This document shows, piece after piece, positions 15,860-19,321 of a DNA stretch of 64,000 nucleotides; position 1 is the stretch's first letter; each line of letters opens with the position of its first letter. The translations under genes were made by a program, and so were the position numbers. Below the pieces are notes generated by a model that was not told the DNA's origin, did no database searches, and saw nothing but the letters and a program-made list of their open reading frames with translations. Location: positions 32,001-96,000 of the forward strand of contig JAGXNO010000003.1 of NCBI GenBank assembly GCA_019894975.1, written 5' to 3'. This stretch comes from Promethearchaeota archaeon (lineage in GTDB: Archaea > Asgardarchaeota > Lokiarchaeia > Sigyniarchaeales > SOKP01).

Positions 15860-16963
15860 ATGCCTAATATTACATCTCTAATAACTCGGAGAATTAAGCC
15901 CATATGTGCAGTATGGGAAATTACGTTAAGATGTAATAGTAAATGTATTCATTGTGGCTCAAAAGCAGGAGAAAGTCGTTTTAATGAGTTGAATACCAAT
16001 GAAGCTTTAACATTAGTAAAAGAATTAAACGATTGTGGTTATAAAGGAGTTGCATTAATGGGCGGCGAACCGCTCATAAGGGAAGATTGGTCTAAAATTG
16101 CTAAAGAAATAAAAAGATATAAAATGGATTTATCAATTGTCACAAATGGATTAAATCTGATTAGGCAAAGTCATGATCTGAAAAGAGTAAAACCAGATTG
16201 CGTCAGCTTAAGTTTAGATGGAGGTACTCCAAAGACACATGATCATATTCGGGGATTTCAAGGATCATTTAAGAAAACACTTGAAGCTATTAATGTGTTA
16301 AAGGATTTAAAAATACCCACAAGTGTAATTACAAGTGTTAACAAAATTAATCTTAAGGAATTGAATCTAATTAAGAATTTACTTTTAGATAGAAGTATTG
16401 CTTGGCAAGTTCAAATCTGTGTTCCTATTGGACGATTTCCTAAAGAACTAGTTATAAACAGAGAAGAATTTTACACATTAGCATTATTTATAGCGATAAA
16501 TCAAAAAAAATATTCATCTCGAAGATTACCATTGATAGGAGCTCATTGTCTTGGGCATTTCTCAAGATTTTTGCCAAATTTAGGTTTAAGTCCATGGGTC
16601 GGATGCCAAGCAGGATTATCAGTATTAGGAATTCAAAGTAATGGAGATATTAAGGGATGCTTAACTCTTCCAGACGAATTTATTCAAGGGAATGTAAGAA
16701 CTCAGAGTTTAAAAGATATTTTAGAAAATTTAAGATCCAGAAAGAAACAGCTACCTCGTAAGTGTATTAATTGTGATGTAGTAAAATCATGTAGAGGCCA
16801 TTGTTTAGGAACTGCTTATGCACTTAAGGATTTTGAAGATCATTATTGTTTAAGAACTATTGAAAAAGAACTTTTTAATTTAGAACAACTATCAATTAGA
16901 GGAAAATTGGATTCAACTTACTCAAAATTTAAAAATTTTTATTATAATCTTATAATCAAATAA
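15860..16963 (+). CDS. Radical SAM/SPASM domain protein (putative peptide maturase)
   Basis: CNSKCIHC, GGEP, SPASM cysteines GCQAG...KGC...CINC.....CRGHC...C. Confidence 0.9.
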   Translation: MPNITSLITRRIKPICAVWEITLRCNSKCIHCGSKAGESRFNELNTNEALTLVKELNDCGYKGVALMGGEPLIREDWSKIAKEIKRYKMDLSIVTNGLNLIRQSHDLKRVKPDCVSLSLDGGTPKTHDHIRGFQGSFKKTLEAINVLKDLKIPTSVITSVNKINLKELNLIKNLLLDRSIAWQVQICVPIGRFPKELVINREEFYTLALFIAINQKKYSSRRLPLIGAHCLGHFSRFLPNLGLSPWVGCQAGLSVLGIQSNGDIKGCLTLPDEFIQGNVRTQSLKDILENLRSRKKQLPRKCINCDVVKSCRGHCLGTAYALKDFEDHYCLRTIEKELFNLEQLSIRGKLDSTYSKFKNFYYNLIIK

Positions 16964-16993
16964 TTTAACAATAATAGAGAAGGGTTTTAAAAA

Positions 16994-17302
16994 TTGATTA
17001 AAGAATTATTTCAAATATATAAAATTGGTAAGGACCTAAATCTTTCTAAAAAAGAAATTAATGGATCTCTTTCTTTTAAAGAAGAATCTCATAAATTTAG
17101 AGATAGGATCATTTATTCGATAATTTTGCTGGTTCTGGTAATTTTAACGGGAGCTGTAATTTTTCTTGCCACTCAAATTGGAATAATTGAACCCATCACT
17201 ACTTCAGGTTCAAATACATATGGAGCAGATGGCGCAAGATATTCCACCATAAGGATAAAGGACTTTAAAAAAAAATTTAGATATTACATTCAAATAAAAT
17301 AA
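16994..17302 (+). CDS. Single-TM small protein, putative precursor peptide 1
   Basis: FQIYKIGKDLNLSKKEI leader, TM helix, TYGADGARYSTIRIKDFK. Confidence 0.75.
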   Translation: MIKELFQIYKIGKDLNLSKKEINGSLSFKEESHKFRDRIIYSIILLVLVILTGAVIFLATQIGIIEPITTSGSNTYGADGARYSTIRIKDFKKKFRYYIQIK

Positions 17303-17332
17303 TGTGTTGAAAAAGGAGGTGAAATTCTAAGT

Positions 17333-17587
17333 ATGATTAAAAATTCTTTTCATTTATTTCAAATTGGAAAGGAATTGGGATTAACTAAGAAAGAAATAAA
17401 AAATTTATCCCTGTTTGGAAATACTAAGCACCCATTCTTATATACGATCGTAATGATCGTATCAATTGTTGCATTTGGGATTTTAATAATTTTTTTAGGT
17501 ATACAAGCCTTTAGAAAGATATATCCCTCGGGAACATTATACTCAACAGTAAAGAAAGAGGATTTCAAACGAAATAAACAAATTTAA
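17333..17587 (+). CDS. Single-TM small protein, putative precursor peptide 2
   Basis: GGAGGTGA RBS; FHLFQIGKELGLTKKEI, TM, IYPSGTLYSTVKKEDFK. Confidence 0.8.
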   Translation: MIKNSFHLFQIGKELGLTKKEIKNLSLFGNTKHPFLYTIVMIVSIVAFGILIIFLGIQAFRKIYPSGTLYSTVKKEDFKRNKQI

Positions 17588-17688
17588 TTAAAAAAATTAA
17601 TAAGAAATTTAAAAGTGAATGCTCTTCTAAAATAAGAATAAATGTAAGATCAACTAAAAGGGTTGAAAAGAGAGGTGAAAACTAAAAA

Positions 17689-17934
17689 ATGTTCAAAGAT
17701 TTTTTTCAGTTATATCAAATTGGTAAAGATTTAGGTTTAACTAAGAAAGAAATAAAAGATTTTTCCCTATTTGGGAATACCAAGCACCCATTCTTATATT
17801 CGATTTTATTGGTTTTATCTATTATTGCAATTGGGATTTCAATAATTTTAGGTATATATATTGAAAGAAGTACATATGCCTCAGGATCGTATTACTCTAC
17901 AGTAAAAAAAAATGATTTCAAACTAAGAAAGTGA
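17689..17934 (+). CDS. Single-TM small protein, putative precursor peptide 3
   Basis: GAGGTGA RBS; FQLYQIGKDLGLTKKEI, TM, TYASGSYYSTVKKNDFK. Confidence 0.8.
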   Translation: MFKDFFQLYQIGKDLGLTKKEIKDFSLFGNTKHPFLYSILLVLSIIAIGISIILGIYIERSTYASGSYYSTVKKNDFKLRK

Positions 17935-17983
17935 ATTTAATTGAGAATTTAAGAAGAAATATCAATGTAAACCCTCTTAAAAA

Positions 17984-19321
17984 ATGAGACTAAATGTAGG
18001 TTGTGGAAAAAAATTTGAACCAGAATATTGTAACATAGATTTATATGAAGATTTAATTGCAGACAAGCTAATGTCTGCGATTAATCTCGATTTCGAAGAC
18101 AACTTATGTGAAGAAATTAAAGCAATTCAGATCATTGAACATTTATCATTTTTTGAAGCCATTTATGCTCTAAACGAATTTTTTCGTGTTTTGCAGTTAG
18201 GGGGAAAACTAATTCTTGAAATCCCTGATCTGATGAAAGCTTGTAAAGTTTTTTTAAATTCTAATAATGATCAAAAAAAAGTAGTATTGGGTTGGATTTA
18301 TGGTGTACCAGATAAAGGTTTACAACATAAATTCTGTTTTCCTGATTACATGTTAACTGAACTATTAGAAAATATTGGATTTATCAATATTAGAACTACA
18401 AAATTTACTAATCTTGAAGCAATTCCAATTTTGAGATTTGAATGTTATAAACCTGAAAATTGGGATGATGCTGAAATCTTCCAGATCTTAGCAAATATGC
18501 ATAAAATATTACAATCTGAAAATTATGTTGATTTTACCGATTCTCTTATAATTAAGGAACAAGAAGATCTATTATCCTTATATTTAATTAAATTACTAAA
18601 ATTTCGAAAGAAGAAGAAAAAAGAAATAATATTTGAGATGTTTATTGATTCCTTGATAAAATGGCCCCAATCCGTTAAATTATTGTTAGGAGTTCTAAAA
18701 GATAAAAATTTCATTTCACAGTCGGAGATTCAGCGTATTTCTGATATAATAGATCTCTTAATTCGAGTAGATTTTCCCAATATTTTATGTTATTTGCTAA
18801 AAAAAGTACCCAATTATCCCGGAACTCAAAGAATTGCATTTTTTTCAATTGAATCTTTCGCTAGGAGCGTTGTAAAAAATTTGATCCAAAATAATGAAGA
18901 AAAAGATAAGCTAATAAAGAAACTTACAAATTTATCTACCCAAATTGAATACCTCGAAATTAAACTATTTTCCCCAAAAATTTTAGAAAAAAAGGCATCA
19001 GATTATTTTTATCTGGGAATTAAAGCTTTTTATGAAAAAAAATATACAATTGCCTATAATCGTTTCCTAAGGGCCATCAAACTTTATAGAGATGATTTTT
19101 GGTATTTTTGGAATCTTGCTAAAATCCTGGTAATACTAAATCGAAAAACCGAAGCAATTAGATATTATAAGAGGACAGTTAGGTTGATCAAATTGACCAA
19201 AATTAACAATAAGAAATTTATCCGTAACGAAATCACTAAAGAACTTTATTATGTAAAAAATGATAAAGTATCTACTCAAGAATTCAAACCAGTATTGTCT
19301 ATTCAATCTCAATACCTTTAG
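17984..19321 (+). CDS. Class I SAM-dependent methyltransferase with C-terminal TPR
   Basis: LNVGCG motif I, IIEHL, LQLGGKLILEIPD; TPR-like YFYLGIKAFYEKKYTIAYNRFLRAIKL. Confidence 0.8.
   Translation: MRLNVGCGKKFEPEYCNIDLYEDLIADKLMSAINLDFEDNLCEEIKAIQIIEHLSFFEAIYALNEFFRVLQLGGKLILEIPDLMKACKVFLNSNNDQKKVVLGWIYGVPDKGLQHKFCFPDYMLTELLENIGFINIRTTKFTNLEAIPILRFECYKPENWDDAEIFQILANMHKILQSENYVDFTDSLIIKEQEDLLSLYLIKLLKFRKKKKKEIIFEMFIDSLIKWPQSVKLLLGVLKDKNFISQSEIQRISDIIDLLIRVDFPNILCYLLKKVPNYPGTQRIAFFSIESFARSVVKNLIQNNEEKDKLIKKLTNLSTQIEYLEIKLFSPKILEKKASDYFYLGIKAFYEKKYTIAYNRFLRAIKLYRDDFWYFWNLAKILVILNRKTEAIRYYKRTVRLIKLTKINNKKFIRNEITKELYYVKNDKVSTQEFKPVLSIQSQYL

Follow-up and report, generated by a model that had tools for sequence, protein, structure and literature searches.

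Organization of the cassette

We analysed a 64,000-nucleotide (nt) stretch of the Promethearchaeota archaeon contig JAGXNO010000003.1 (assembly GCA_019894975.1, positions 32,001 to 96,000), here called the window, which carries a compact five-gene cassette on its forward strand. The cassette encodes a radical S-adenosylmethionine (SAM)/SPASM enzyme, three small precursor-like proteins and a protein that combines a methyltransferase domain with tetratricopeptide repeats (TPRs) (Table 1). In the open reading frame (ORF) listing of the window the genes are separated by 30, 30, 101 and 49 bp, exactly the coordinates and spacings of five tightly packed, co-oriented genes given in an initial annotation of this DNA, which had suggested a system for a ribosomally made peptide with post-translational modifications (RiPP). 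Its observation that no protease or ABC exporter adjoins the genes is borne out by the ORF listing and a Pfam scan around the cassette, and homologues carry Asgard source names, in keeping with the Asgard-like host that it proposed.

A GGAGGTG ribosome-binding site lies upstream of the gene for small protein 2. The genes for small proteins 2 and 3 with their upstream DNA form a 193-nt direct repeat of 81% identity, so gene 3 is a fairly recent tandem duplicate of gene 2.

Table 1 Coordinates of the cassette, its parts and other features named in the text. Positions are those of the window unless a locus or genome is given.
Feature	Position	Strand	Details
Cassette, five genes	15860-19321	+	
Radical SAM/SPASM enzyme, 367 aa	15860..16963	+	Pfam Radical_SAM and SPASM, cluster cysteines
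Precursor-like small protein 1, 102 aa	16994..17302	+	TTG start; peptide HMM 102 bits
Precursor-like small protein 2, 84 aa	17333..17587	+	Peptide HMM 132 bits
Precursor-like small protein 3, 81 aa	17689..17934	+	Peptide HMM 129 bits
Methyltransferase-TPR protein, 445 aa	17984..19321	+	AF2 model, Foldseek, TPR structure matches
Small protein 1, leader	17018-17059	+	
Small protein 1, helix		+	About residues 39-60
Small protein 1, core	17219-17266	+	Residues 76-91; Tyr83 then Ser-Thr
Small protein 2, leader	17357-17398	+	
Small protein 2, helix		+	About residues 35-57
Small protein 2, core	17522-17566	+	Residues 64-78; Tyr70 then Ser-Thr
Small protein 3, leader	17713-17754	+	
Small protein 3, helix		+	About residues 35-58
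Small protein 3, core	17875-17919	+	Residues 63-77; Tyr69 then Ser-Thr
MoxR-like AAA ATPase (286 aa) and VWA/CoxE-like protein (412 aa)	13610-15722	-	Divergent from cassette
MscL-family channel	19475-19849	+	153 bp 3' of cassette; Pfam 3.9e-16
132-aa ORF	23663-24061		Partial copy of methyltransferase-TPR gene (about residues 254-372)
Repeat of methyltransferase-TPR gene	23697-23996 vs 18741-19040		300 nt, 95% identity
Second repeat	20732-20907 vs 24087-24262		84% identity
CapK/PaaK-like gene, locus L012	9366-10748		
CapK/PaaK-like gene, locus L037	3286-4665		
CapK/PaaK-like gene, locus L038	3303-4688		
CapK/PaaK-like gene, locus L039	2705-4003		
Cluster around P0311, L034/L035	263-7803		Archaeal metagenome contig
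Mini-ORF in P0311 cluster	7648-7803		Leaderless, single core
Weak matches, genome G301 (CP070798)	1299999-1300073, 334245-334316, 1869937-1869999, 1920788-1920964		Leader or core, E 4e-4 to 6e-3
Agathobacter rectalis small ORF, L046 (plasmid NZ_CP143948.1)	3707-3913		Unannotated
Aureibacter tunicatorum cluster, L050 (plasmid pAT1)	1671-4441		DUF1843 peptides, rSAM/SPASM, class I methyltransferase

Small proteins with a leader, a membrane helix and a tyrosine-rich core

The three small proteins are paralogues; the second and third share 40-47% identity with the first. In each, residues 9-22 form an N-terminal motif, after which come a hydrophobic helix of ~23 residues and a Tyr-rich C-terminal motif which ends in D-F and is followed by a basic tail. 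The N-terminal motif, referred to here as the leader, reads hydrophobic-x-x-I-G-K-x-L-G-L-x-K-K-E-I. The C-terminal motif, or core, has the consensus Y-[P/A/K]-[S/A]-G-[T/S]-x-Y-[S/G/A]-[T/S]-[V/I]-x-x-[K/R]-D-F across 77 cores. Its second Tyr is present in all 77 of these, partly as a matter of selection since the search pattern itself demands an aromatic residue at both Tyr positions, and is retained in diverged subfamilies too; the first Tyr is absent from some Thermoplasmatota members. The residue after the second Tyr is Ser 48 times, Gly 18 times and Ala 9 times; it is Gly in the diverged Asgard subfamily and in the majority of Thermoplasmatota cores, and the combination of this Tyr with a small residue is common to all subfamilies seen. 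The initial annotation had described a conserved leader and a variable core: the leader is indeed conserved, but the core is conserved as strongly as the leader.

All Asgard members of the family have a strong membrane helix. Among 100 helix-bearing members, its median length is 23 aa and that of the tail after it 31 aa, and the 15 residues preceding the helix contain on average 3.4 Lys and Arg, against 1.05 in the 15 that follow, the N-terminal side being the richer in 94 of 100.

Searches of Pfam and NCBIfam returned no significant match for any precursor, including the helix-free and multi-core ones described below. A role of the leader as a DNA-binding domain was considered and dismissed, the 14-residue motif having only a sub-threshold likeness to sigma-70 region 4 and helix-turn-helix helices. 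Cys is missing from the window's three peptides and from nearly all family members, for which reason sactipeptide, ranthipeptide or thioether chemistry was likewise rejected.

Co-location with the enzyme and distribution

We searched a sample of 301 Asgard genomes for the enzyme (E <= 1e-80) and, with a profile hidden Markov model (HMM) of the small proteins, for the peptides. The enzyme was found in 60 genomes, the peptide family in 52 and both in 47, with the matches adjacent on the same contig. Peptides standing apart from the enzyme, an observation that the initial annotation had named as speaking against their pairing, were not found: 47 of the 52 peptide-positive genomes also have the enzyme, the clear peptide-only genomes (G034, G231 and G227) reflect contig ends or an enzyme fragment, and the remaining two match only weakly and in part. 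Diverged clades at 43-48% identity account for the 13 enzyme-only genomes; the methyltransferase is still adjacent in 10 of the 11 of these examined. A motif search in three of these clades (f7, f23 and f24) finds diverged precursors next to the enzyme in 7 of 9 loci examined, with a similar leader, two membrane helices and the C-terminal motif x-Y-G-V-[Y/F]-[S/T].

Twenty Asgard loci were extracted and scanned with HMMs. A relative with an 84% identical enzyme has an identical layout, including the three small genes and an MscL gene downstream. More distant Asgard loci have the enzyme, one small gene and the methyltransferase, or small genes flanking the methyltransferase and enzyme, and a complete Thermoplasmatales genome has the enzyme, two small genes and the methyltransferase. 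The number of small-protein copies per locus ranges from 1 to 4. The gene set is far beyond chance, because the same set recurs in dozens of genomes. The initial annotation had taken the small ORFs to be partners of the adjacent radical SAM enzyme, and the co-location and copy-number data suggest that they do behave as its precursors. No protease or exporter is conserved beside the Asgard cassettes examined, which is consistent with a product that stays attached.

The distribution is patchy: within its own genus 12 of 22 genomes have the cassette, at family level 27 of 68 do, and among high-quality genomes 18 of 90, and some genomes carry two copies; the cassette is therefore accessory. A housekeeping role, raised by the 55-85% identity across Asgard lineages, was rejected since the cassette is patchy even within the genus. 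Of 301 Thermoplasmatota genomes sampled, 19 have the enzyme, often with two or three paralogues in tandem. Asgard and Thermoplasmatota enzymes are interleaved in the tree described below, which suggests transfer or ancient paralogy and not the vertical descent of a housekeeping gene.

Helix-free and multi-core relatives

The peptide family is small, comprising 66 clusters in a search of 1.84 billion representative proteins. Some of its members have no membrane helix and several cores: P0311 (140 aa) has one leader followed by six tandem 15-residue cores, P0301 has one leader and three to four cores, and P0313 one leader and two. Four Thermoplasmatota loci (L012, L036, L037 and L039) encode homologues of 52-84 aa that consist of a leader and core only. 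Helix-free Thermoplasmatota homologues mostly end at the D-F or within one residue of it, and the precursors of L036, L037 and L039 carry one to three cores (two- and three-core forms in L036); in one L012 protein, leader and core together are duplicated in tandem. Thus the helix between leader and core noted in the initial annotation is not a property of the family as a whole, as the Thermoplasmatota and metagenomic relatives lack it, and it is dispensable. A single recognition sequence followed by repeated cores is a classic design of a RiPP precursor, and is hard to fit with a membrane anchor. The family shows the generic features of RiPP precursors: a small ORF, a conserved recognition region with a core, co-location with the enzyme, and variable copy numbers or multi-core forms.

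These relatives bear on the possibility that the small proteins are membrane anchors or regulatory subunits that bring the radical SAM enzyme and methyltransferase to the membrane to act on some other substrate, such as an archaeal lipid or a different membrane protein. Such a role would account for the strong helix of every Asgard member, for a cassette without protease or exporter, and for loci in which enzyme and methyltransferase are adjacent or overlapping even without a classical precursor between them (L015-L024), and the conserved C-terminal motif could then be a docking site. However, an anchor would not be expected to exist as a helix-free protein of 52-84 aa, nor would one leader with two to six tandem cores make sense for it; the copy number of 1 to 4 and the enzyme's nearest relatives, which are peptide maturases beside small precursors, also argue against it. 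We therefore consider this explanation unlikely.

A larger and richer cluster surrounds the six-core P0311 on its metagenomic contig (L034/L035). It comprises two SPASM paralogues, one of them the orthologous enzyme (365 bits), together with a B12-radical SAM enzyme, an S9/S33-type hydrolase, an Rce1-like CPBP protease and a mini-ORF; a methyltransferase-TPR gene is absent. In four Thermoplasmatota loci a CapK/PaaK-like adenylate-forming (AMP-binding) enzyme directly adjoins the methyltransferase and may be a fourth component there, for example in carboxylate activation. A query from a Thermoplasmatota locus found no CapK-like ligase in the window's genome. In the Thermoplasmatales genome G301, weak leader or core matches lie at four places away from the cassette, and may be dispersed extra precursors or chance matches.

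The radical SAM/SPASM enzyme

The 367-aa protein matches Pfam Radical_SAM (4e-25) and SPASM (1.2e-6), both above their gathering scores, and contains the radical SAM motifs that the initial annotation had quoted. All of 25 homologues keep the Cx3Cx2C cysteines (C25, C29 and C32) and the seven of the SPASM domain (C249, C267, C302, C305, C311, C315 and C330), and C230 is close to invariant. By these features the protein is assigned to the radical SAM/SPASM superfamily (PF04055 and PF13186) as a full member. It has no N-terminal RiPP recognition element (RRE) domain, the radical SAM core beginning at about residue 20. More than 560 homologues, 43-85% identical, are found in Asgard archaea and Thermoplasmatota.

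Among curated models, the enzyme scores highest against TIGR04103 (192.2 bits; cut-off 725) and TIGR03913 (160.4; cut-off 591.75), both of which are peptide maturases, followed by TIGR04133 (151), AhbD (128), WgkB (123), MftC (109; cut-off 265), DynA (69) and PqqE (67; cut-off 381). The nearest solved structures by sequence are those of SkfB, BlsE and PqqE. A description of the enzyme as a TIGR03913-like maturase, as in the initial annotation, did not stand, given 160 bits against a cut-off of 592 and a position outside the GDL/DUF1843 clade of the tree.

The maximum-likelihood tree comprises 49 sequences, 40 of them archaeal, with reference enzymes taken from tblastn searches against plasmids: a Nostoc PlpX-type enzyme, which is the only splicease reference, GDL/DUF1843, TIGR04133, MftC, NirJ and TIGR04053 enzymes, and an unannotated enzyme from Agathobacter rectalis that is the best bacterial match (37% identity). 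The 40 archaeal enzymes form a single clade (support 87/94) inside a superclade (98/98, starred in the tree) that also holds the Agathobacter and TIGR04133 enzymes and a clade of the PlpX-type and GDL enzymes (100/98). The enzyme is thus related to the spliceases and GDL maturases but belongs to neither. A grouping with cofactor enzymes, which the initial annotation had listed as counting against a RiPP system, was not found: MftC, NirJ and TIGR04053 all fall outside the superclade.

The last result matters for the idea that the cassette is a pathway to a peptide-derived redox cofactor of the pyrroloquinoline quinone (PQQ) or mycofactocin kind, in which the Tyr core would be excised and turned into a small cofactor. 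SPASM enzymes make both PQQ and mycofactocin, and the present core, conserved and with invariant tyrosines, is unlike most RiPP cores, which are hypervariable; in addition, as with MftA, the core forms the very end of many helix-free precursors, and mycofactocin has a similarly patchy distribution. Nevertheless, MftC is an outgroup in the tree, and the MftC and PqqE models give just 109 and 67 bits, below their cut-offs. Nor is a peptidase, flavoenzyme or dependent dehydrogenase conserved nearby in the loci examined, and a membrane helix and multi-core repeats are foreign to cofactor precursors. This makes a cofactor pathway very improbable.

The methyltransferase-TPR protein

The 445-aa protein is predicted to consist of a class I methyltransferase fold (residues 1-155), a conserved helical region (~160-320) and three TPRs (~322-442). 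AlphaFold2 (AF2) models have a mean confidence (pLDDT) of 87 and 92, and a Foldseek search with residues 1-155 returned SAM methyltransferases (E 1.8e-4, probability 1.00, TM-score by target about 0.5). Residues N4, G6 and G8 (the G-x-G motif), D19 (the acidic residue after strand 2) and an E-H pair are invariant in 25 homologues. The modelled fold, the retained G-x-G and the three C-terminal repeats agree with the methyltransferase-TPR assignment of the initial annotation. Since G-x-G, acidic residue and E-H pair are all invariant, the domain seems to be under selection for SAM binding, and with the first two of these kept in every homologue, real methyl transfer is plausible. One homologue comes nearly to the Pfam threshold (Methyltransf_23, 26.9 against 27).

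The TPR structure matches (Z 13-14, rmsd 1.7-3.5 over 86-109 residues; model residues 163-283) have scores that helical repeats easily reach, and Pfam TPR_2 scores 21.7 bits, below its cut-off of 27. For the helical middle region, structure and feature searches returned only generic TPR or helical-repeat neighbours and the protein's own family, with no RRE-like or otherwise telling fold. The methyltransferase gene adjoins the radical SAM gene in 28 of the 29 distinct loci examined from Asgard archaea and L012, none being found in L014, and in only 4 of 10 further Thermoplasmatota loci.

We wondered whether the protein could be catalytically inert within an otherwise RiPP-like system, serving as a leader-binding scaffold in place of an RRE. 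The enzyme has no RRE of its own, TPRs commonly bind peptides and the matches include the peptide-binding TPRs of Rap, PlcR and Hop type; moreover the methyltransferase domain of the window copy is sub-threshold in Pfam, and two loops near the expected cofactor site have pLDDT < 50. The invariant G-x-G, acidic residue and E-H pair would, however, be hard to explain in an inert domain, and loci without the methyltransferase-TPR gene keep enzyme and precursors, so it is not an obligatory scaffold. We regard a purely structural role as quite improbable. A predicted complex of the enzyme, the methyltransferase and precursor 3 gave an ipSAE interface score of 0.00 in both runs, which were made without controls, and weighs neither way.

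A proposed maturation pathway

From the co-location, the precursor designs and the placement of the enzyme, we consider it likely that the locus is a RiPP-like maturation cassette in which the radical SAM/SPASM enzyme acts on the conserved core Tyr, with the three small proteins as its substrates. The helix motif in the leader of each small protein would dock the precursor on the enzymes, and the cytoplasmic radical SAM/SPASM enzyme would carry out radical chemistry on the core Y-x-x-G-x-x-Y-[S/G/A]-[T/S]-[V/I]-x-x-x-D-F. The target would most probably be the second Tyr (Tyr83, Tyr70 and Tyr69 in the three proteins), because it is Tyr with a small residue that all subfamilies seen have in common. 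Excision of tyramine and a Tyr-centred C-C, C-O or C-N cross-link are about equally open as outcomes, and the crosslinked product inferred in the initial annotation is one of at least two candidates. The methyltransferase-TPR protein would methylate the precursor, grip it by its TPR and helical part, or both. In the Asgard forms the helix lies between leader and core with a short tail after it, so the core would have to be modified before the protein inserts in the manner of a tail anchor, with the leader then remaining in the cell and the modified core facing outward. The charges flanking the helix and the short tail fit this N-in/C-out, tail-anchor-like topology, but it is not secure, because the extreme C-terminus is basic and precursor 3 has six Lys and Arg on either side of its helix.

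Several observations weigh against such a pathway, the charge of the Lys/Arg-rich C-terminal end being one of them. The evidence for the small proteins as putative substrates is genomic. A membrane helix separating leader from core sits badly with a cytoplasmic Fe-S enzyme, and by ORF listing and Pfam the cassette includes neither an RRE nor a protease or exporter. The enzyme passes the cut-off of no curated family, its archaeal clade lies beside the splicease clade and not within it, and the window's three cores carry Tyr-Ser-Thr, not the Tyr-Gly of characterised spliceases. As for the methyltransferase, Methyltransf_11 scores 15.4 bits against a threshold of 21.2 on the window copy, and the gene is missing at some loci: in its place L035 has the B12-radical SAM enzyme, and no methyltransferase adjoins the enzyme in L036 and L040-L043.

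A more specific form of the proposal holds that the product is a membrane-tethered, backbone-edited peptide that is never released. Its Tyr would be excised as tyramine or cross-linked and the methyltransferase would add a cap, giving, after membrane insertion, a surface warhead such as an alpha-ketoamide protease inhibitor that is still joined to its leader, and the enzymes would represent a splicease branch that accepts Tyr-Ser. Taken as a whole, this version is speculative and rather unlikely.

Genes flanking the cassette

Downstream of the cassette and on the same strand lies a gene for an MscL-family channel. Its position is retained only in the nearest relative (L006/L007) and not in more distant loci, and it is therefore probably outside the system. 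Upstream, a MoxR-like AAA ATPase and a VWA/CoxE-like protein are encoded divergently. In L006 the AAA ATPase gene still adjoins the cassette and the VWA-like gene lies farther upstream, beyond an enoyl-CoA hydratase-family gene; neither was seen at more distant cassette loci.

A 132-aa ORF further downstream is a partial copy of the methyltransferase-TPR gene. It occupies the distal end of a stretch of ~4 kb (about 19.9-24.1 kb) not present in L006, where a thiolase gene follows directly after MscL, and a second repeat flanks the same stretch (Table 1). The stretch looks like an insertion or recombination scar involving another copy of the cassette.

Novelty and significance

Neither this peptide family nor an Asgard radical SAM RiPP was described in the literature searched, although an earlier bioinformatic listing of the clade is possible (Scott et al. 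2022). As that study is cited in PMC11626197, spliceotide clusters were found in bacterial and archaeal genomes (Chem 8:2659). Apart from haloarchaeal lanthipeptides (PMC12144867) and a single thioether system from a methanogen (PMC13692751), archaeal RiPPs have hardly been characterised.

The family described here is well bounded: roughly a fifth of the Asgard genomes sampled, and roughly 6% of the Thermoplasmatota genomes sampled, carry it. Its helix-free and multi-core precursors are natural "easy" substrates for biochemistry. The design is unusual in placing a helix between leader and core, and it invites the question where and by what means a cytoplasmic Fe-S enzyme treats a membrane protein. 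If tyramine excision proved true, spliceases would be extended to archaea and to Tyr-Ser and Tyr-Ala sites, which would be useful for the engineering of proteins with beta-amino acids; any other chemistry would make this a new radical reaction directed at Tyr. Cell biologists, too, would be interested if the closest prokaryotic relatives of eukaryotes proved to have a surface-tethered modified peptide.

Comparison with known systems

Spliceases act at X-Y-G, from which they remove a unit of tyramine, and those of binary systems bind a leader helix (PMC11414181, PMC11626197, PMC9811515). In the systems of the PlpX/PcpX-type spliceases (TIGR04103, "nif11-class peptide radical SAM maturase 3"), as in the binary RhaX, RcsX and RasX systems, a radical SAM/SPASM enzyme likewise lies next to one small precursor or several. 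Of the curated HMMs, TIGR04103 fits the window enzyme best; the enzyme shares the starred superclade with the PlpX-type reference, and further likenesses are a conserved core Tyr with a small residue, Tyr-Gly in many archaeal relatives, and, as in the binary systems, a helix in the leader (PMC11414181). However, the enzyme reaches 192 bits against the 725 of that model, and the archaeal clade is separate from the one splicease reference rather than nested with it. The window peptides have Tyr-Ser in place of the X-Y-G splice motif, their leader is neither Nif11 nor NHLP, no PlpY is present, and both the helix between leader and core and the dedicated methyltransferase-TPR partner set the cassette apart.

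The GDL/DUF1843 maturases (TIGR03913) are the second-best HMM for the enzyme and lie in the same superclade, and DUF1843 peptides also have a Tyr followed by Gly or Ala. In these, however, the Tyr is N-terminal, whereas in the window's family it is C-terminal; the window peptides have no Pfam match, while the genuine DUF1843 peptides of locus L050 score 46 bits; and the window enzyme lacks the C-terminal extension, some 100-150 aa long, of the GDL enzymes. Locus L050, on plasmid pAT1 of Aureibacter tunicatorum, encodes three tandem DUF1843 peptides, a radical SAM/SPASM enzyme and a class I methyltransferase. Its layout is the same as that of the window cassette, with unrelated peptides; because its methyltransferase is not detectably homologous, the resemblance is an analogy only.

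Tyr with a small residue recurs in substrates across the superclade: the Nif11 precursor of the Nostoc PlpX-type enzyme ends in ...A-L-Y-G-L..., DUF1843 peptides have Y-G or Y-A near the N-terminus, and a small ORF of Agathobacter rectalis contains M-Y-G-T. This ORF, unannotated, lies just upstream of the enzyme homologue, which is followed by a major facilitator superfamily (MFS) transporter. In its internal-ATG form it encodes 35 aa, has a GGGAGGTGG ribosome-binding site and ends in M-Y-G-T-G-V-R-M. By sequence, the ORF and enzyme form a probable, uncharacterised splicease-like pair of human gut Lachnospiraceae.

StrB/SuiB, WgkB, DynA and the triceptide cyclophane synthases resemble the window enzyme in being SPASM enzymes that act on Cys-free cores with aromatic residues. 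Judged by HMM score, none of them being in the tree, these Cys-independent cross-linkers are more distant than the PlpX and GDL models (WgkB 123 bits, DynA 69 bits). CrpC of Methanococcus voltae installs thioethers on the Cys-rich protein CrpA and has an RRE, and is likewise an archaeal radical SAM/SPASM enzyme modifying a neighbouring gene product, one that stays protein-like and is not turned into a small released peptide (PMC13692751). In contrast, the window's putative substrates have no Cys and its enzyme has no RRE. The cassette thus appears to belong with the radical SAM/SPASM RiPP systems of the splicease/GDL superclade, within which it is distinguished by its archaeal leader and core, the membrane helix between them and its dedicated methyltransferase-TPR partner.

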